From positions 32,001 through 96,000 of IMG/VR virus record IMGVR_UViG_3300035698_019747: a stretch of 64,000 bases of DNA. The stretch is one strand, 5' to 3'. A model generated the notes under the pieces. The model made no database searches, was not told the DNA's origin, and worked only from the letters and a program-made list of their open reading frames with translations. The position numbers and the translations under genes are program-made. Of this stretch, positions 18,088-48,024 are shown in pieces. Origin of the DNA: a virus. The stretch's first letter is position 1. Every line of letters starts with the position of its first letter.

Positions 18088-18789
18088 ATGGAATATAATG
18101 CAGTTTATTTCGGTAGCTTTAACCCAGTTCACCGTGGACATATAGAAGCTATGCGATCTATATTTTCCTTTCCAAATATAAAATCAATCGATATTGTGTT
18201 AACCCCACACAATCCAGACAAAGATGAGTCTTCAATATATCCATATAGTATAAGAAAGGAATTAATTAAAAAATCATTTTATAGAATGCAATATGGTGAC
18301 ACTTCGGATCACACATCAGGGTTAAAGAACCATATTAATACTGACCTCTCAATATACAATGATGATTCAAAATATATGATAGTGAATGATATAGAAACTA
18401 CCCTAACTAAACCTAACCACACTTATAAGACTATTAGAGAACTTAAAAATACTTTACCAAATATAGCAATAGTTTTGGGGACTGATACAATAAATGATAT
18501 CCATAATTGGGAAAATAGTGAGGAATTAATATGTCTACCAATCATACACTTAAAGAGATGTGGATACGAAATAAGTGAGAATGCTAGTAATTATAATATA
18601 ATACACACTCTTGTAAACTTGCCAAATGTATCAAGCACCGAAATAAGGAATAAAATAAAAAATGATGATTACACAGAACTACAAAATTATATACCATATT
18701 ATATGGCAGATTTTTTTAAAGATGAAATGAAAGGCTATAACAGACAGATAAATATTGATACTATTTTAAATAAAAATGAAAATGAATGA
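18088..18789 (+). CDS. nadD: Nicotinate/nicotinamide mononucleotide adenylyltransferase
   Basis: FGSFNPVHRGH (HxGH), GTD...W, VSSTEIR. Confidence 0.85.
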   Translation: MEYNAVYFGSFNPVHRGHIEAMRSIFSFPNIKSIDIVLTPHNPDKDESSIYPYSIRKELIKKSFYRMQYGDTSDHTSGLKNHINTDLSIYNDDSKYMIVNDIETTLTKPNHTYKTIRELKNTLPNIAIVLGTDTINDIHNWENSEELICLPIIHLKRCGYEISENASNYNIIHTLVNLPNVSSTEIRNKIKNDDYTELQNYIPYYMADFFKDEMKGYNRQINIDTILNKNENE

Positions 18790-19810
18790 TATAAAATTTG
18801 ATTGGAATGATGTGACAATTGCACCATCACCAACATTTACTGATATAAATAGTAGGAAAAAAGAAGTGAACCCATATAAATATGGTAAGATGTTACCATT
18901 AATTGCAGCCCCAATGGATACCGTAATTGATGCCGATAGCTATGAAAACTTTTTAAATGCTGGTATAGAAGTTTGTACACCAAGAGGTGTTGATGTAAAT
19001 GATGATAGAACATTTAAATCAATCGGCATTAAAGAGATTGAAGATATATTAAAATTAGGTAAAAGTCCTAAAAAAGTCCTATTGGATGTTGCTAATGGGC
19101 ATATGAAGTTAGTATATGATTTGGCTAAAAGTTTTAAAACTAAATTCCCAGATAGTGAGTTAATGGTCGGTAATATAGCACACCCAGATATATTTTTAGA
19201 ATATGAAAATATTGGTGTCGATTACGTTAGATGTGGAATTGGAGGTGGGTCAGCATGTACTACATCAGCAAACACTTCCGTACATTACCCCATGGGTTCA
19301 CTGATTAAAGAATGTAATAATTTAAGATCAGTACACACAGATACAAGACTAAATACTAAAATAGTTGCTGATGGCGGGTTTAAGAACTATAGTGATATTA
19401 TTAAAGCACTTGGAATGGGTGCTGATTATGTTATGTTAGGTAGTATTCTTAATAAAACTTTAGAATCCTGCTCACCTTCTTATGATAGAACCATAACAGG
19501 GAACTATAGCCAAATTGATAAAATAACTGCTGAGAATAATTTTGATAAAAATTTAGAAATATATAAATATTATAGGGGCATGAGCACCAAAGAAGTGCAG
19601 CGAGATTGGGGTAAAAAGGTTCTTACTACTAGTGAGGGTATATCTATGTATAATAAAGTAGAATATAAATTAGATGGTTGGGTTGAAAATTTAACTGACT
19701 ATTTGATGAGCACTATGAGTTATTGTGGTAAAAGAAAATTAGAGGATTTTATAGGCGGTGTTGATTTCGTTAGAATTACTCAACAAGCGTTTAATAGATT
19801 TAATAAATAA
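18776..19810 (+). CDS. IMP dehydrogenase / GMP reductase family, no CBS domains
   Basis: AAPMDTV, LDVANGH, GIGGGSACTT, VADGG, YYRGMS. Confidence 0.88.
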   Translation: MKMNDIKFDWNDVTIAPSPTFTDINSRKKEVNPYKYGKMLPLIAAPMDTVIDADSYENFLNAGIEVCTPRGVDVNDDRTFKSIGIKEIEDILKLGKSPKKVLLDVANGHMKLVYDLAKSFKTKFPDSELMVGNIAHPDIFLEYENIGVDYVRCGIGGGSACTTSANTSVHYPMGSLIKECNNLRSVHTDTRLNTKIVADGGFKNYSDIIKALGMGADYVMLGSILNKTLESCSPSYDRTITGNYSQIDKITAENNFDKNLEIYKYYRGMSTKEVQRDWGKKVLTTSEGISMYNKVEYKLDGWVENLTDYLMSTMSYCGKRKLEDFIGGVDFVRITQQAFNRFNK

Positions 19811-19814
19811 AATT

Positions 19815-20660
19815 ATGAATATAGAAAAACAATATTTAGAACTATTACAGAATGTCATTGATAACGGCTTTCTTAAAAGTAATAGAACTGGTGTGAGTGC
19901 ATACACCATACCAAATGCAATGGTACAACATGATATGTCAGAGGGCTTCCCATTATTAACAACTAAAAAAATGGGTATTAAGAATATCTCTGCTGAATTA
20001 GAATTTTTCATCAAGGGATTAACTGATAAGAATTGGTTAAAAGAAAGAAGATGTCATATTTGGGATGAGTGGTGCAACCCTTCTTTAATCCCTGATAACC
20101 TTGATGAAGAAGAAAGAAAAGAATTTCAACTATCAGAAAGTGATTTAGGTAAAGTTTATGGATACCAATGGAGAAATTTCAACTCTCAGGAATATGATCA
20201 ATTGAGAAATGTTATGGATACTTTGAGAATAAATCCAAATGATAGGAGAATGGTAGTATCTGCTTGGAATCCTCTTCAGTTTGATGAGATGGCACTACCA
20301 CCATGCCATATGATGTGGGGTGTTACCGTAGTTGGGGGTAAGTTAAATCTATGGTGGGTTCAGAGATCGGTTGATATATTTTTGGGACTACCATATAATA
20401 TAGCATCCTATGCTTTATTACTTAAATTGCTATGTGAGGCAAGTGGTTACGAGGCAGGTATATTGACAGGATTTTTATCTGATGTGCACCTATACGGGAA
20501 CCATATAGACCAAGCAAAATTACAATTATCAAGAACACCAAATGTGACACCATCTTTAGATATAATAGATTTTAAGAATATATATGAGTGGGAATATAAG
20601 CAAGTAGAAATATCAGGGTATGATCCACATAACCCAATAAAAGCACCAATCGCAGTATAA
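19815..20660 (+). CDS. thyA: Thymidylate synthase
   Basis: NRTG, FPLLTTKK, YGYQWR, MALPPCH, QRSVDIFLGLPYNIASY; start moved to ATG 19815. Confidence 0.97.
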   Translation: MNIEKQYLELLQNVIDNGFLKSNRTGVSAYTIPNAMVQHDMSEGFPLLTTKKMGIKNISAELEFFIKGLTDKNWLKERRCHIWDEWCNPSLIPDNLDEEERKEFQLSESDLGKVYGYQWRNFNSQEYDQLRNVMDTLRINPNDRRMVVSAWNPLQFDEMALPPCHMMWGVTVVGGKLNLWWVQRSVDIFLGLPYNIASYALLLKLLCEASGYEAGILTGFLSDVHLYGNHIDQAKLQLSRTPNVTPSLDIIDFKNIYEWEYKQVEISGYDPHNPIKAPIAV

Positions 20661-21823: not shown

Positions 21824-21830
21824 TACAGTA

Positions 21831-21908
21831 ATGAAAAAATTAGTAATAACATCAAGTTCACGTAGTAGTCGCAAACACCATTCTGGGGTCAGTTTACTCG
21901 TGCTATAA
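21831..21908 (+). CDS. Putative attenuator leader peptide MKKLVITSSSRSSRKHHSGVSLLVL
   Basis: 25 codons with Ser/Arg cluster TCA AGT TCA CGT AGT AGT CGC at 21852-21872, upstream of a terminator and Arg/Ser tRNAs. Confidence 0.75.
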   Translation: MKKLVITSSSRSSRKHHSGVSLLVL

Positions 21909-21938
21909 CTTTTGTTATAACTAATTAAGTAAAGCCTC
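21885..21938 (+). promoter_or_regulatory. Putative antiterminator helix
   Basis: GGGGT(CAG)TTTACT 21885-21898 can pair with AGTAAAGCCTC 21928-21938, enclosing hairpin TATAAC-TTTT-GTTATA 21904-21919; overlaps the terminator 5' arm. Confidence 0.55.
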
Positions 21939-21957
21939 ACATATGTGAGGCTTTTTT
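21931..21957 (+). terminator. Intrinsic terminator (attenuator) between leader and tRNAs
   Basis: AAAGCCTCAC-ATAT-GTGAGGC-TTTTTT. Confidence 0.85.
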
Positions 21958-21979
21958 GGTTTAAAATGTAATATAATAT

Positions 21980-22051
21980 ACCTTTGTCGTCTAACGGATA
22001 AGATACGGTGCTACGGACACTGGGATGGGAGTTCGATTCTCCCCAAGGGCA
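21980..22051 (+). tRNA. tRNA-Arg(ACG), CCA not encoded
   Basis: Anticodon arm CGGTG-CT-ACG-GA-CACTG; T-arm GGGAG-TTCGATT-CTCCC; acceptor ACCTTTG/CAAGGGC. Confidence 0.85.
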
Positions 22052-22065
22052 CTAATAATAAATAT

Positions 22066-22154
22066 GGTAGAATGACAGAGTGGTAATGTGCTGGTTTGCT
22101 AAACCAAGACCATCGGGTAAGACTGATGCAGGGGTTCGATTCCCTTTTCTACCG
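22066..22154 (+). tRNA. tRNA-Ser(GCT), CCA not encoded
   Basis: Acceptor GGTAGAA/TTCTACC, G73, anticodon loop TT-GCT-AA, long variable arm, TTCGATT. Confidence 0.9.
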
Positions 22155-22167
22155 CAAGTAAACAAAT

Positions 22168-22256
22168 GGAGGTGCGCAAGGTTGGCGTGCTTATCGGTCT
22201 TGAAAACCGTGATGTCGGGTAAGACTGACGTGGAGGTTCGATCCCTCTCATCTCCG
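22168..22256 (+). tRNA. tRNA-Ser(TGA), CCA not encoded
   Basis: Acceptor GGAGGTG/CATCTCC, G73, CGGT-CT-TGA-AA-ACCG, long variable arm; atypical D-arm. Confidence 0.85.
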
Positions 22257-22260
22257 CAAA

Positions 22261-22349
22261 GGTGAAGTGACAGAGTGGTAATGTACCTGCTTGGAAAGCA
22301 GAGATCATCGGGTAAGACTGATGCGGGGGTTCGATTCCCTCTTTCACCG
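22261..22349 (+). tRNA. tRNA-Ser(GGA), CCA not encoded
   Basis: Acceptor GGTGAAG/TTTCACC, CTGC-TT-GGA-AA-GCAG, long variable arm. Confidence 0.9.
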
Positions 22350-22362
22350 CAAGTAAACAAAT

Positions 22363-22451
22363 GGAGGTGCGCAAGGCTGGCGTGCTTATCGGTCTCGAAA
22401 ACCGTGATGTCGGGTAAGACTGACGTGGAGGTTCAATCCCTCTCATCTCCG
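22363..22451 (+). tRNA. tRNA-Ser(CGA), CCA not encoded
   Basis: Near-identical copy of 22168-22256 with anticodon CGA. Confidence 0.85.
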
Positions 22452-22716
22452 CAACACAGTTTTTATAATAACTAAAAAAATATTAAAATATGAAAAATAT
22501 ATTCGGAACATATAATATAAAATCAGGGCAATCAGTGTACTTAGAGAAATATTTAAATATTAATTTTATTGAATATATAAAAGTTGATAAGTGTACATTT
22601 ATTTTTTTATGAATCAATCACAATCAGAATACGTACTGAGGATGCTATCACCATATATTGAGAGCAATGAATCTGAGGGGATAATAATAGGGTTATAATA
22701 ATATATATATATATAT

Positions 22717-31996: not shown

Positions 31997-32413
31997 TTAC
32001 TTTAATTCTCTATTCATTCTTCTAATAAGTGAGTTACAAAATGATAAAAATTTCTTAGCCATTATATTATCTTCTATTAAATTTATATGAAAATCTTGTG
32101 GTGTACCATCATCATTACTATAATTAATATTTAATTCACCAACTTCTCTACCAGAAAATAAAATTAATTTATCTACATTTAGTCCATTCTTAGTGAATTC
32201 AGTGTTTATTTTTTTAGATAATATTCTGATGGTATTTTTTTCACTATCTGTGAGAGGATAAATATCTTCTGCTATACGAGCGGTATCGTGAACCACACTA
32301 TCCTTACCAAATAGCTTAATTAAATATGTAGTTTCTATTGTTCCTTCATAATCGATCGGATTTAATAAATTAACCATTAAACTTAAATTGCTTTTACTCT
32401 TATCTAGTTTCAT
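31997..32413 (-). CDS. Hypothetical protein
   Basis: ORF track. Confidence 0.65.
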   Translation of the reverse strand: MKLDKSKSNLSLMVNLLNPIDYEGTIETTYLIKLFGKDSVVHDTARIAEDIYPLTDSEKNTIRILSKKINTEFTKNGLNVDKLILFSGREVGELNINYSNDDGTPQDFHINLIEDNIMAKKFLSFCNSLIRRMNRELK

Positions 32414-33029: not shown

Positions 33030-33839
33030 TTAATAATTTACGATTATAACCTCTTGTGTGTTTTTATTAATTTTATTGCGAGAAACTTTATTGTAATCAA
33101 AATCCAAGTTTATTAGATTGTATTCATTACTTAATTTTCTTAAGGTTTCACTCTCAATACCATTATGAGTAATCAACCCAGATAACATAAATGAGTTGCC
33201 CCGATTGTCAATGCTCTTAACATATTTATAAAGATTGTCCTCTAAATCACTACTCCAATAACTATTATAACCAGCTTCGGTGTTTATATATGGTGGATCA
33301 ATATATACCATTGAATCATCTATCATAGGGAACTCGTCAAAAGATATTGAATAATAATTGATAATATCCCCATATTTAGAAAGATGATTTACATATTCAT
33401 TAGTTTTTTTAGTAGTGCTATCATTCCAACCACGCTTACCCCATGTCTGATTAAATTTAAACTTTTTATTAAAGCGCATCAAATTAGAAGTGCAACTTAA
33501 CATCAACGCCCATAACTTTTCAGGTGTTTTGGACTCATTATAAGAGGTTCGTAATTGCAAAAACTTCTCCTTATCTTCTTTACATGTAGCGAGTTCCATT
33601 GTTTTGTTTACAATATCAATAGGTGATTCTTTCAGAATTTGATGTAGATTGACTAAATCCTCAATAACATCATTGATATATATGTTATCATATTTATCTA
33701 ATATATTGGTATATACACACCCACCCCCTGTGAATAAATCAACAAAATTAGATCGGGAATAGTCCATTTTAGGTAAAATTTGTTCAAGTAATTTAAATTT
33801 AGACCCAGTATAATTAAAAGGAGTATTTATATGTTTCAT
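33030..33839 (-). CDS. dam: DNA adenine methyltransferase (Dam/D12 class)
   Basis: FNYTGSKFKL, DLFTGGG, IND, RFNKKFKFN, YIDPPY. Confidence 0.9.
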   Translation of the reverse strand: MKHINTPFNYTGSKFKLLEQILPKMDYSRSNFVDLFTGGGCVYTNILDKYDNIYINDVIEDLVNLHQILKESPIDIVNKTMELATCKEDKEKFLQLRTSYNESKTPEKLWALMLSCTSNLMRFNKKFKFNQTWGKRGWNDSTTKKTNEYVNHLSKYGDIINYYSISFDEFPMIDDSMVYIDPPYINTEAGYNSYWSSDLEDNLYKYVKSIDNRGNSFMLSGLITHNGIESETLRKLSNEYNLINLDFDYNKVSRNKINKNTQEVIIVNY

Positions 33840-35752: not shown

Positions 35753-38038
35753 TTATGAATCTATGATACCAAACTCTAGATGATACACTTTATCGTATCT
35801 AATATATGGTGTATCTGAAAATCTTGCAAGTGATCTAATAGTATCTAAATTTAGATTCTTAAGTGCCCTTTTGTTCTTAATTCTCGCTTTATAATCAAAA
35901 CGCGAATCATTATCTAAGTTATTAATAGTTTTCCGTATTCTAGATGCTGTATATTCATCTTCCTTAAATTCAACACCAAAATCAGTTCTTAGTTGGTGTG
36001 TGAAAGGACCAACCCATTGATCATTATCATGGTGTTTTACAATAAAAAATACCTCTGAACCACTAGACCGCAAAGGATTACTACCAGCCACCTTAATATT
36101 ACCATTATTTACATTTTTAAAATATTCTTTAGGGTATATGTTACTCAGGTTTTTATAACTTTTAGATAATAACTTCGTATGATAATTATTTATATCACTA
36201 CTGTTTTTAATCATGAAAGCGTTATAAATTTCATATAATTTAGATAAGGTAATACTTTGTTTATTATATTTAGAAATTGTATCATACCACTTTTTATATA
36301 AACTGATATCATACTGAGTATTGATAGCACCCTCATTTGATTTATTAGTATTATCTACTGGTTTGTATATATAAACACTAGGTGTATTAAATTCACCCCA
36401 TCTATTAACTCTCCCGAAACGCTGCACAGTAGACTGTGGTGACATACAATCCTCATAAAGTTTATCAAATGAAACATCTAATGATGCTTGTAACATAGGT
36501 GTGCCAATTACATTGTCTTTTACTAAGGTGGGTTTGGACACTTTCCCATAAGCTTTCAATAAAAAATTTAAATCCTGATTTTTCTTATCATCTAAAAATA
36601 GACTATGTAATAAGAGTTTATAATCTTTACTATTATATTTCTTAATATCCTGAGCGTTTCTTATCGAATTCTTTATAACCAAAGAATTTGTATTAGGTAT
36701 AATAGAAGGTGGTTTATCAGATACTTCTAAATTATATGGCTTTGAATGCACAGGAGAGTAATGTTTACCATTGTTCGGCAATATAACTACTTTATTTTTT
36801 GAGCCAAACAAATTGCTTATACGCAACTCTAATAAAATAGGAGTCGCTGATAACATCATAGTTTTACTATTAGTAAAATTTTTTCTAATCGTTACGATAT
36901 CTATGAAAGCCGCCATTATCGCAGACTCTGTTATAAATTCATGGTATTCATCAAAAACAACATCAGATCCTAAAATTAAAGAAGATAAATCATAATGCTT
37001 CGTCTTAAAAGTAGGTGCTAAGAAGTTATCTATATTAGTTACTATAATATCTGATTCATATATAGGGACATCAGTATTTGAATCCTTAACCTCACCAGAT
37101 AAAAGAAGCTGAACGCTAGGTATATGATCAGTATTTAAATTAGTTATTTCTTCTAGTATTGACTTATAAACCGATATAGCAATAGTGTTTCTAGGAACTA
37201 CCCATAAAAGTTTTCTACCACTTTTAATACTCCACATCAAACCAGTAAGGGTCTTACCAAATCCAGCAGGGGCATTTAATATAATAGTATTATCTATATG
37301 ATTAGATATACCCTCCTGTACTTTAAAGCGATCATCATATGTATATGCCATATCACCTACATTAAATGATATTTTTTTCTGCATATCAAAGTAACTCTTT
37401 TCGACACTTTTATGACTTATTTCCGATAAACTATTAAAACCTGATCCAATTCTATCAGCAGTAATAACTAAACTTCTAAGGTATTGTAATTTTTGGGATT
37501 CTGTTTTATTTGATAGATAAAATAGAGGTGGTTCTGAATCGATATAACTATCCATATCAATAATATCATCATCCATATCATCATATACTTTTATATTATC
37601 CTGCCCTACTACTTTTTTTAGCGCATCTAACATGGGTTTAATATCGCCACTATATTCATCGTTATCAATTATAAGAGCTTTAATTTTACCACACCCCTTA
37701 CTATTACTATTAGTATTAACACCGTGATGCCAATGTACAATATTTAGAATATGTGACTTCCCCGTATAATCATCTTTAATAAACTTTTCTAGAAATGCCC
37801 ATCCTACTTGATTATGTCTATGGTTTTGACCCGATATATCCCCATTATCTTTCAACATGTTCTGGAATTTTTGAGTCAGTTTTCCTATATCATGTAGCTT
37901 TGCTGCCACTTCCAGAATATGAAGAAAATAATCACGTTGTTCCCCAACAGTGACATTTATAGATTTGAATAATATTTTTGTTACTTCCCACACTATTTCA
38001 CAGTGAAGTATATAACTTTGATCATTTTTTGCTAACAT
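35753..38038 (-). CDS. cas3: Cas3-like HD nuclease-SF2 helicase fusion (orphan)
   Basis: LAK...H, LHDIGK...FQ, RHNQVG, WHHG, ITADRIGS; helicase motifs APAGFGKT, FDEYH, SATP, LHSLF, QASLDV, QRFGRVNR. Confidence 0.9.
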   Translation of the reverse strand: MLAKNDQSYILHCEIVWEVTKILFKSINVTVGEQRDYFLHILEVAAKLHDIGKLTQKFQNMLKDNGDISGQNHRHNQVGWAFLEKFIKDDYTGKSHILNIVHWHHGVNTNSNSKGCGKIKALIIDNDEYSGDIKPMLDALKKVVGQDNIKVYDDMDDDIIDMDSYIDSEPPLFYLSNKTESQKLQYLRSLVITADRIGSGFNSLSEISHKSVEKSYFDMQKKISFNVGDMAYTYDDRFKVQEGISNHIDNTIILNAPAGFGKTLTGLMWSIKSGRKLLWVVPRNTIAISVYKSILEEITNLNTDHIPSVQLLLSGEVKDSNTDVPIYESDIIVTNIDNFLAPTFKTKHYDLSSLILGSDVVFDEYHEFITESAIMAAFIDIVTIRKNFTNSKTMMLSATPILLELRISNLFGSKNKVVILPNNGKHYSPVHSKPYNLEVSDKPPSIIPNTNSLVIKNSIRNAQDIKKYNSKDYKLLLHSLFLDDKKNQDLNFLLKAYGKVSKPTLVKDNVIGTPMLQASLDVSFDKLYEDCMSPQSTVQRFGRVNRWGEFNTPSVYIYKPVDNTNKSNEGAINTQYDISLYKKWYDTISKYNKQSITLSKLYEIYNAFMIKNSSDINNYHTKLLSKSYKNLSNIYPKEYFKNVNNGNIKVAGSNPLRSSGSEVFFIVKHHDNDQWVGPFTHQLRTDFGVEFKEDEYTASRIRKTINNLDNDSRFDYKARIKNKRALKNLNLDTIRSLARFSDTPYIRYDKVYHLEFGIIDS

Positions 38039-46920: not shown

Positions 46921-46961
46921 AAAAAACCCCCCCATATAAATTAATATATGGGGTTCTTTTT
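46921..46961. terminator. Bidirectional terminator
   Basis: CCCCATATA...TATATGGGG flanked by A and T runs. Confidence 0.75.
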
Positions 46962-48024
46962 AGTTTACTTCTAGATTAACTTTTCGATAACTTCTATTAG
47001 CAGAAATCACCTTAACAGATACTCTTTCACCAGCATTCATATCTTTTATGGAATTATTGTTTCTAACTAAACCAGATGTCTCACCATCTAATTCGATTAA
47101 AGTACCAATATCGATATGAGTCTTTATCTCACCTTCAAGAATTTGCCCCTTCTCAATAGTATCCCATAATGATGTTGAATCTACCTGAGATAATATGATA
47201 CCCTTTTTAATAACCTCCTTAACTTTAAAGGATATTTCTTCACCTGAGTGAATGCTTCGGTTATTAAACTTTTCGGACATGATCTCATTTAGGTTAGTCT
47301 TATGAATAAGTCCTGTTAAACATTCATTAAACTCAACAAAAACACCAAATTTAGTTGTACCAGTAACATGACCAGTATAAACTTCTTCTGCATCTAGATT
47401 ATCGATATATTGTGGTATTAATTGAGTTAAATACCCCCTTCTACTAACGATCCAAGTACCCTTTTCCTTTGAAAATGATTCTACACACATCTCTAGTGTC
47501 TGTCCTATAATATCTTCTTTTGCAGTGTCGTGAATCTTATTCACACCTGCTAGGAATTGTGGGAGAAACGCATCCACAAAGCAATAGTTGCCCAAAATCT
47601 GACACACGTAACCCGCAGGGTTCATGGACTCAATTTTAACATGCACATAATCCTTTTCATCAAGTTCTCTAAGTGTTCTATGAGTTTCTTCTTTATATAA
47701 TAAAGAAACACTACCGTTGATTTCAAACCCATTAGATGCCTCTGAAATGCGTGTGATGACAATAGGCACACTGTCCCCTATATTAACATTATCGAATATT
47801 AATGTTTCTTCTTTATTATTAGGCACTCTAACAATATCCTTGAATGACCCATCAAGTAAATAATCGTCTTTATCCATACCTGTATAAATACAAGTAAATG
47901 AATTTCCTACTTTCGGAACATTGATTGAGTCTAGCATTAATTTATACATCTCTTCCGTATATGTTGATTTAGTATCAACTTCATCAAAAAGGTAATCTAA
48001 TTCTTCTACTGCTGATTTTACCAT
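46960..48024 (-). CDS. Ribosomal protein S1-like multi-S1-domain protein
   Basis: AFLPQFL, IVSRR, YTGHVTGTTKFGVFVEF...GLIHKTNL and GQILEGEI S1 repeats. Confidence 0.85.
   Translation of the reverse strand: MVKSAVEELDYLFDEVDTKSTYTEEMYKLMLDSINVPKVGNSFTCIYTGMDKDDYLLDGSFKDIVRVPNNKEETLIFDNVNIGDSVPIVITRISEASNGFEINGSVSLLYKEETHRTLRELDEKDYVHVKIESMNPAGYVCQILGNYCFVDAFLPQFLAGVNKIHDTAKEDIIGQTLEMCVESFSKEKGTWIVSRRGYLTQLIPQYIDNLDAEEVYTGHVTGTTKFGVFVEFNECLTGLIHKTNLNEIMSEKFNNRSIHSGEEISFKVKEVIKKGIILSQVDSTSLWDTIEKGQILEGEIKTHIDIGTLIELDGETSGLVRNNNSIKDMNAGERVSVKVISANRSYRKVNLEVN

Follow-up and report, generated by a model that had tools for sequence, protein, structure and literature searches.

A serine tRNA set in a phage operon, probably built by duplication and anticodon switching of a neighbouring gene pair

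The DNA analyzed here, a window of 64,000 nucleotides (positions 32,001 to 96,000) from the IMG/VR virus record IMGVR_UViG_3300035698_019747, carries an operon of five transfer RNA (tRNA) genes, four of which are for serine and have the anticodons GCU, UGA, GGA and CGA (GCT, TGA, GGA and CGA in the genes). The locus raises the question of how a phage came to hold a reader for every serine codon, including the rarely used TCG, and what such a set is for. The explanation that we consider best overall, to which we give a probability of about 0.6, is that the operon arose from a pair of serine tRNA genes that was duplicated and switched, and that it serves host-independent serine decoding. The original prediction, made from the letters of the window, had likewise described four serine isoacceptors in two 195-bp units, and ARAGORN and Tandem Repeats Finder agree with that description in all details.

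Four serine tRNA genes in two tandem units

The operon lies on the plus strand and opens with tRNA-Arg(ACG) at 21980-22052 (ARAGORN; 44.3 bits with the Rfam tRNA model). It continues with tRNA-Ser(GCU) at 22066-22155 (anticodon 22098-22100; ARAGORN; Rfam 54.1 bits), the ancestral copy, which has a canonical class II body with the D-arm TGACAGAGTGGTAATGT; then come a 12-nt spacer, AAGTAAACAAAT (22156-22167), and tRNA-Ser(UGA) at 22168-22257 (anticodon 22201-22203; ARAGORN), whose body we call array-type. The same order recurs with tRNA-Ser(GGA), derived from the GCU gene, at 22261-22350 (anticodon 22293-22295; ARAGORN; 52 bits with the Rfam tRNA model), an identical spacer at 22351-22362, and tRNA-Ser(CGA), derived from the UGA gene, at 22363-22452 (anticodon 22396-22398; ARAGORN). 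The two 195-bp tandem units, [GCU, spacer, UGA, 3 nt] and [GGA, spacer, CGA, 3 nt], span 22066-22455, and Tandem Repeats Finder reports 22073-22454 with a period of 195, 2.0 copies, 92% matches and a score of 655.

Each of the four serine genes is 90 nt long and has a long variable arm, and ARAGORN folds all of them into a cloverleaf with a 7-bp acceptor stem, a 5-bp T stem and a TTCRA-type T-loop. G73, G1-C72, G2-C71 and a variable stem of 6-7 bp are present throughout, as is the variable-arm core that the original prediction had noticed, here confirmed as the 14-nt TCGGGTAAGACTGA. The anticodon loops (CUUGAAA, CUCGAAA, UUGGAAA and UUGCUAA) are canonical and match the general bacterial consensus, and under standard wobble the four anticodons cover all six serine codons, as had been claimed. 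The 3′ CCA is encoded by none of the five tRNA genes, which end in G-CAA. Bacterial seryl-tRNA synthetase (SerRS) recognises its tRNAs by the long variable arm and by G73 and ignores the anticodon, while the other long-armed bacterial tRNAs, those for Leu and Tyr, have A73. The four genes are thus set apart from Leu and Tyr tRNAs by their G73, and, since both features that SerRS reads are kept in all of them, anticodon switching would be possible. Two minus-strand open reading frames (ORFs), 22052-22360 and 22099-22446, were rejected as genes, being stop-free runs antisense to the GC-rich tRNA genes.

The copies have diverged to very different degrees. TGA and CGA, for which about three differences including the wobble base had been anticipated, differ at exactly 3 of 90 positions (tRNA positions 15, 34 and 73, counted along the gene), the substitutions in CGA lying at 22377 in the D-loop, at 22396 (the wobble base, position 34, T to C) and at 22435 in the T-loop (G57 to A, a purine being kept). 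GCT and GGA differ at 17 positions, 13 of them in the acceptor stem and the anticodon arm, which together comprise 31 nt (Fisher p = 1.1e-4); pairing is kept there, as the prediction had held, and the differences include five double, pair-preserving replacements.

The prediction had itself named an assembly artefact as one thing that would undo it, that is, a second unit that does not exist in the phage DNA. We regard this as extremely improbable. The assembly is of short metagenome reads at low depth (3-6x in the Logan contigs compared), and no single contig spans the whole array; however, the stretch is matched in two salt-lake metagenome runs from two studies, one of which may be the source sample, and separate contigs from the two runs cover both unit-specific junctions. 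One Logan contig covers 22210-22295 (the TGA-to-GGA junction) and another 22332-22678 (the end of GGA, the spacer, the whole of CGA and the flank), each with zero mismatches, and the contigs break inside the repeat, as expected with short k-mers. The search for sequencing runs containing the stretch returned no RNA run. Moreover, the 20 differences between the units preserve base pairing, which assemblers do not invent, and repeats are usually collapsed rather than expanded by assemblers.

Two tRNA bodies and the direction of the anticodon changes

The GCT and GGA genes share an identical 17-nt D-arm and have the canonical core (U8, A14, D-stem in the standard register). The motif TGACAGAGTGGTAATGT occurs in 91 viral contigs, in genes with the anticodons GCT (50 genes), GGA (8), TGA (3), CGA (2), GTT (10) and GCA (3), so that 50 of the 63 serine genes with this D-arm are GCT. 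GGA is closest to its neighbour GCT, with 81% identity compared with at most 70% for any other phage's gene on this body, and the D-arm and anticodon arm of GCT are identical over 36 nt to those of a Ser(GCT) gene in the viral contig L238; the anticodon arm is identical to those of both L238 and L193. On these grounds, GCT is ancestral and GGA derived within this lineage.

The GTT (Asn) genes with this D-arm (L184, L190, L192, L195, L203, L225, L246, L251, L255 and L256) have Asn-like U1-A72 acceptor stems, and the GCA (Cys) genes are found in L185, L197 and L208. The ten GTT genes without exception have a long arm, as does one of the GCA genes (82-88 nt); the remaining two measure 73-75 nt.

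The TGA and CGA genes do not have the canonical core; they carry C8, a 3-bp D-stem shifted by one and a U27-U43 mismatch, and the first two of these features place them in a non-canonical sub-type of serine tRNA. Both fall below the Rfam tRNA threshold and find their best match in the tRNA-Sec model, at 38.9 and 36.8 bits (cut-off 47). An alignment of 37 array-type genes nevertheless supports the 7/5 cloverleaf by covariation, with pairs in 98.5% of cells and compensatory double changes in 140; the acceptor stem is 99.6% and the T stem 98.4% paired, and C8 is invariant. The shifted register of the D-stem covaries (C-G to U-A, in five sequences), whereas the standard register chosen by ARAGORN shows no covariation. 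This alignment supports the view that the array-type body is a real tRNA. It resembles tRNA-Sec and allo-tRNAs in its long variable arm, G73 and non-canonical core, and differs from them in its 7-bp acceptor stem, 5-bp T stem, UGA or CGA anticodon and sub-threshold score. A tRNA-Sec (RF01852) was rejected on the anticodons, which are UGA and CGA and not UCA, on the 7/5 stems, on position 8, which cannot pair with the 3′ strand, and on the score of less than 47 bits. The (8/4, 9/3) allo-tRNAs were reportedly described by Mukai and colleagues in 2017 as charged by SerRS; an 8/4 allo-tRNA is ruled out here, as the fifth T-stem pair covaries. For annotation it matters that standard models under-score this UGA body and pull it toward the tRNA-Sec model.

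A 25-mer from the D-stem and anticodon arm of the UGA body was found in 21 viral contigs and in 23 of 185,579 bacterial species genomes, the bacterial matches all lying inside tRNA gene clusters, mostly large arrays like those of mobile elements. The body is also about 80% identical to annotated tRNA-Ser(tga) genes of Streptomyces phages and of Maribacter phage Panino. Both serine bodies thus look like lineages of phages or mobile elements, spread across phages that differ widely in G+C, with no particular host donor apparent; their occurrence both in such dissimilar phages and in mobile tRNA arrays is what makes them of interest. TGA is the anticodon in 35 of 35 aligned relatives with the array-type body, retrieved in a way that permitted T or C at the wobble position, which argues that CGA is the derived copy. 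Ser(GCT) and Ser(TGA) lie at most 150 nt apart in 30 of the 47 loci holding both, so the duplicated unit would be an old neighbour pair.

These outgroups give a direction to the tandem duplication and anticodon switching that had been predicted, and they support it. The series would have begun with a widespread neighbour pair of phage arrays, a canonical class II Ser(GCU) and an array-type Ser(UGA), which was duplicated in tandem at 195 bp within this phage lineage. In the second copy, GCU would then have become GGA through two anticodon bases and compensatory changes in the anticodon and acceptor stems, and UGA would have become CGA through one wobble transition, leaving the phage with its own decoder for every serine codon. 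From the identity rules of SerRS, the step from GCU to GGA could have passed through two substitutions, with a GGU (Thr-reading) or GCA (Cys-reading) intermediate still charged by SerRS, or through replacement of a patch. The view that changes in the anticodon stem tuned it to the new anticodon is unconvincing, C31-G39 being present in 4 of 13 NGA and 4 of 42 GCT genes on this body. The locus is thus a compact natural record of a virus enlarging its decoding capacity, in which outgroups give the direction of change.

The structural part of this account stands, but one neutral duplication alone falls short as a history, because a divergence of 17 against 3 between the two halves of the unit is too uneven (binomial p about 0.001). 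Three histories would fit: the re-aimed GGA copy changed rapidly and adaptively; an older duplication was followed by gene conversion of the segment made up of spacer and TGA, and then by the wobble change; or there were two separate events.

The shared variable-arm core is odd as well. Variable arms differ between the two serine bodies in other phages, most pairs sharing at most 7 nt. The arms on the UGA body of L146 and L168 resemble the arm of this phage while the arm on the GCU body of L238 does not, so the GCU body probably received its core from the UGA body. Sharing of a core across bodies could stem from templated repair of short patches, or from recognition of the arm sequence by some factor. 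In L245, an array-type Ser(UGA) (L245:2006-2090) and a canonical Ser(GCU) (L245:2327-2414) share a 13-nt core, GTCCTCACGGATG, and are otherwise unrelated.

No close relative with the same array was found in IMG/VR, metagenomes or phage records. A pattern of 28 nt from the variable arm and T-arm gave 0 matches in IMG/VR; a paired-core pattern gave eight metagenome matches, none with a tRNA, which we attribute to chance. Near and distant BLAST searches against 50,697 phage records returned single tRNA-Ser genes only, and 80 loci anchored on the upstream neighbour gene (PF25187 family) held no comparable serine array. Among 123 loci with class II serine tRNAs, 98 have one or two serine anticodons and one (L216) has all four, on unrelated bodies; in L230, GGA and CGA are neighbours with the same body, and a body common to GCT and GGA is seen in L205, L235 and L238. 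The full set is therefore rare, but it is not unique, complete or near-complete serine sets and duplication with switching occurring in other phages as well.

The closest parallel comes from G001, a relative with 57% terminase identity (270,756 bp, 89% complete), in which [Phe+Lys(UUU)] has been duplicated to [Phe+Lys(CUU)], the two Lys genes showing about 9 differences and both being intact. Its two-gene repeats (L130:5447-5766, L131:8262-9230) comprise Phe+Lys twice (UUU to CUU), Asn+Leu twice (UAG, CAA) and Thr+Val twice, and in each of them one member is far more diverged than the other. On the evidence of the Lys pair, this clade seems habitually to retain a U34 reader together with a C34 reader. 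G001 (L130, L131) also contains tRNAs for Lys, Asn, Thr, Val and Cys anticodons that are long-armed and stand next to normal ones.

Phage tRNA clusters, tRNA duplication and anticodon shifts are all already known. The operon is like the tRNA clusters of large and huge phages (T4, T5, the Streptomyces BE-cluster, "Mahaphage"; PMC7162821) in its packed tRNA genes on one strand, distinct from those of hosts and accompanied by other translation genes, and differs in that its four serine genes were apparently made in place from two. With "tRNA remolding" it has in common a new isoacceptor from a copied tRNA gene, and with the evolution of serCGA and serTGA in Pseudomonas fluorescens (PMC7661048) a SerRS that ignores the anticodon and a UGA and a CGA that overlap in function. 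It departs from both in that the copied unit comprised two genes and each copy took on a new anticodon, in one case across serine codon boxes. The present case is a well-polarised instance of such a module copy, with one change bridging the two unconnected boxes of serine, in a huge-phage lineage that does the like elsewhere.

Codon demand, the leader and what the set may be for

The original prediction held codon supplementation to be a weak explanation, which proved right for part of the set. Counted over 195 greedily chosen ORFs, serine makes up 7.9% of the phage's codons (3,656 codons), divided among AGT (35%), TCA (26%), TCT (26%), AGC (6.6%), TCC (4.1%) and TCG (2.3%, 83 of 3,656). With TCG at 2.3%, codon demand does not explain the CGA gene, and tRNA-Arg(ACG) likewise reads just 18% of the Arg codons; the judgement does not extend to the other three serine tRNAs. 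Supplementation proper, with tRNAs for codons that the phage uses more than its host and a set that mirrors heavy serine use, nonetheless strikes us as improbable. It would account for the GCU, UGA and GGA genes, and further tRNAs of the phage (Leu-UAA, Ile-GAU, Pro-UGG, Gln-UUG) also read preferred codons. However, the 83 codons served by CGA are already readable by UGA and are thinly spread, with at most 5 per gene and no gene in which they concentrate, and the Arg(ACG) gene is unaccompanied by an AGA-reading tRNA in this fragment. The operon in this way supports the view that the tRNA supplies of huge phages do not track codon demand.

Upstream of the tRNAs lies what may be a regulatory leader, consisting of a 25-codon ORF, MKKLVITSSSRSSRKHHSGVSLLVL (21831-21908, plus strand), with seven Ser codons (TCA twice, AGT four times, TCT once) and two Arg codons (CGT, CGC). 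Compared with the phage's own codon usage, both are enriched (P for at least 7 Ser in 25 = 0.0026; P for at least 2 CGT/CGC/CGA in 25 = 0.01), and Arg is written not with the common AGA but with the rare codons that tRNA-Arg(ACG), further downstream, reads. In the RNAfold minimum free energy structure, a long imperfect hairpin (a "1:2" structure, 21838-21926, plus strand; -23.6 kcal/mol for the leader alone) pairs the run of Ser and Arg codons with the 3′ part of the leader. It is followed at 21931-21960, on the same strand and about 20 nt upstream of the first tRNA, by a strong predicted intrinsic terminator with a 10-bp stem (21931-21954), a 4-nt loop and a T tract. An alternative pairing of 21885-21898 with 21927-21938 (11 bp, with 2 G-U pairs and a bulge) is weak, and in co-transcriptional folds it appears only with the Ser/Arg run blocked and the 3′ arm of the terminator untranscribed. 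The closest cis-regulatory match in Rfam is Phe_leader, at 21830-21960, below threshold (27.7 bits, E 0.027).

Transcription attenuators of amino-acid operons use leader peptides (trpL, hisL, pheL; PMC3082878), and the likeness lies in the short codon-enriched ORF, the long hairpin and the intrinsic terminator just 5′ of the controlled genes; here, in contrast, the genes downstream are tRNAs and not biosynthetic enzymes, and the antiterminator is weak in folds. G001 has comparable arrangements (L130:4600-5280), namely a His-rich ORF, MVLVFKHKFFHNHCKSRG, before two His tRNAs and a Lys/Phe-rich one, MRTVSKNIKGFKKFFKKNFIRDNTS, before the Lys/Phe cluster, both followed by an intrinsic terminator just 5′ of the tRNAs. 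The His tRNAs, at L130:4733-4907, were missed by ARAGORN and found by Rfam. No run of Arg(ACG) followed by Ser genes with a Ser/Arg-rich leader was found in the other loci examined. Codon-sensing control of the tRNA operon by the leader is, on these folds, plausible but not established.

Host-independent serine decoding by the duplicated and switched set would work as follows. The transcript would need excision of the tRNAs and addition of CCA ends, for which the phage encodes its own enzyme, a gene of the CCA-adding enzyme/poly(A) polymerase family at 1508-2632 on the plus strand (Pfam PolyA_pol head domain, E 2.9e-29, and its RNA-binding domain). The Ser- and Arg-rich leader may tune expression to slow decoding of Ser and Arg codons, and the purpose would be to sustain serine decoding while the supply of host tRNA is inadequate or falling, rather than to match demand. 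As read from the leader ORF, the terminator and the CCA-adding enzyme, a host-independent tRNA supply is plausible and no more than that. Selection may have acted to replace the whole host tRNA-Ser pool, as the original prediction proposed; this is a reasonable inference, consistent with the U34/C34 sets of the clade, the leader and the phage's own tRNA-maturation genes, while the anticodon loops are canonical.

Several observations weigh against this account. Three of the four serine tRNAs match the three commonest serine codons of the phage, so matching of demand is possible for these; the asymmetry of 17 to 3 calls for an extra assumption, be it that GGA changed fast and adaptively, that TGA and CGA underwent gene conversion or that there were two events and not one; and the CGA copy is very young, with 2 changes outside the anticodon, and could be transient; at such an age, an intact structure is no proof of purifying selection. 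As to the leader, the terminator always forms at equilibrium and the antiterminator is weak in folds, and in a more distant phage, G002, Arg(ACG) is preceded by a terminator but by no codon-matched leader.

The youth of the CGA copy is also the starting point for a neutral alternative, that tandem duplication is frequent in phage arrays and that CGA, perhaps with GGA, is a recent, unselected by-product that will be lost or drift. TGA and CGA are just 3 sites apart and the spacers are identical, repeated two-gene units are common in G001, and UGA already reads UCG, the loss of serCGA in Pseudomonas being compensated through additional serTGA copies (PMC7661048). We nevertheless find this unlikely. 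One of the three changes falls exactly on the wobble base, for which the chance is about 3% with three random hits in 90 nt, and the other two are at tolerant positions; the five compensatory base-pair replacements in GGA indicate that it was kept functional, and the Lys pair of G001, although older, is still intact.

Quite unlikely, in our estimate, is that the tRNAs are spare parts against a defence, replacing or outnumbering host tRNA-Ser cut by an anticodon nuclease or toxin. The tRNAs of T5 counter the defence systems PARIS and retron Eco7. The unusual core of the UGA/CGA body (C8, shifted D-stem) is confined to phages and mobile tRNA arrays, and a response on demand would go well with a leader sensing slow Ser/Arg decoding. 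Cleavage of tRNA-Ser inside the GA of NGA anticodons is known from nucleases, namely M. tuberculosis VapCs (cited in PMC10264068), and huge phages carry genes that repair cleaved tRNAs (PMC7162821). As with the nuclease-evading phage tRNAs of PMC10264068, copies on the phage would be able to stand in for depleted host species; but here the loops fit the general bacterial consensus (the comparison being with that consensus and not with host tRNAs) and lack the loop mutations proposed there for evasion. In addition, mycobacteriophages avoid rather than carry NGA serine tRNAs (PMC10264068), and no nuclease or tRNA-repair gene was identified here.

A more specific proposal combines several of these elements into a self-contained cassette for Ser and for the CGN codons of Arg, made on demand: stalling on the leader codons would open the terminator, the phage would obtain its own full serine set when the host pool is cut or run down, the set would have been completed by the jump between boxes from GCU to GGA, and the variable-arm core would be kept for a phage or host factor that reads it. 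We hold this to be doubtful as a whole. The leader, terminator and five tRNAs nevertheless make up a small cassette in which to study whether decoding stress affects how much phage tRNA is made. A pairing of phage-encoded synthetase with its own matched tRNAs found no support, the class II core of the SerRS type (PF00587) being absent from the fragment, which represents about 56% of the genome.

The phage and its other genes

The source record is linear, 152,402 bp long and 28% G+C, and is estimated to be about 56% complete, so that a full genome of about 270 kb is expected. A terminase large subunit and a long tail sheath are among its genes, and the best matches of the terminase among deposited phages are huge phages of 634-735 kb (LR756501-4, LR745206; 36-43% identity), followed by Tenacibaculum phage PTm1. 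Genomes of more than 634 kb are placed in the "Mahaphage" clade, with Bacteroidetes predicted as their hosts, and huge phages carry up to 67 tRNAs each, unlike those of their hosts (PMC7162821). Judged by its genes, the genome is a fragment of a huge tailed phage, distant kin of the "Mahaphage" clade. The 12 tRNAs counted in the 152-kb fragment are a lower bound, the genome being incomplete, and the serine share of four in twelve overstates the focus on serine; G001 has at least 22 tRNAs in two clusters, with Ser, Arg, Pro, Gln and Trp absent among them.

Outside the window, at genome position C1:107007-107080, ARAGORN finds a tRNA with the anticodon CUA, which reads TAG. General recoding of TAG is not evident, as ORF coverage rises merely from 0.851 to 0.871 if TAG is read through and 25 of the 195 ORFs end in TAG. 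Within the window, the minus strand encodes a Dam-type DNA methyltransferase (33030-33839) and a Cas3-like protein with an HD nuclease, a DEAD/ResIII helicase and a Cas3 C-terminal domain (35753-38038); Tandem Repeats Finder found no CRISPR array in the window. Four further genes are of kinds typical of huge phages: a ClpB-like double AAA+ ATPase (6005-8041), an IMPDH/GMP-reductase-like protein (18776-19810) and a thymidylate synthase (19758-20660) on the plus strand, and an S1 RNA-binding-domain protein (46960-48024) on the minus strand.

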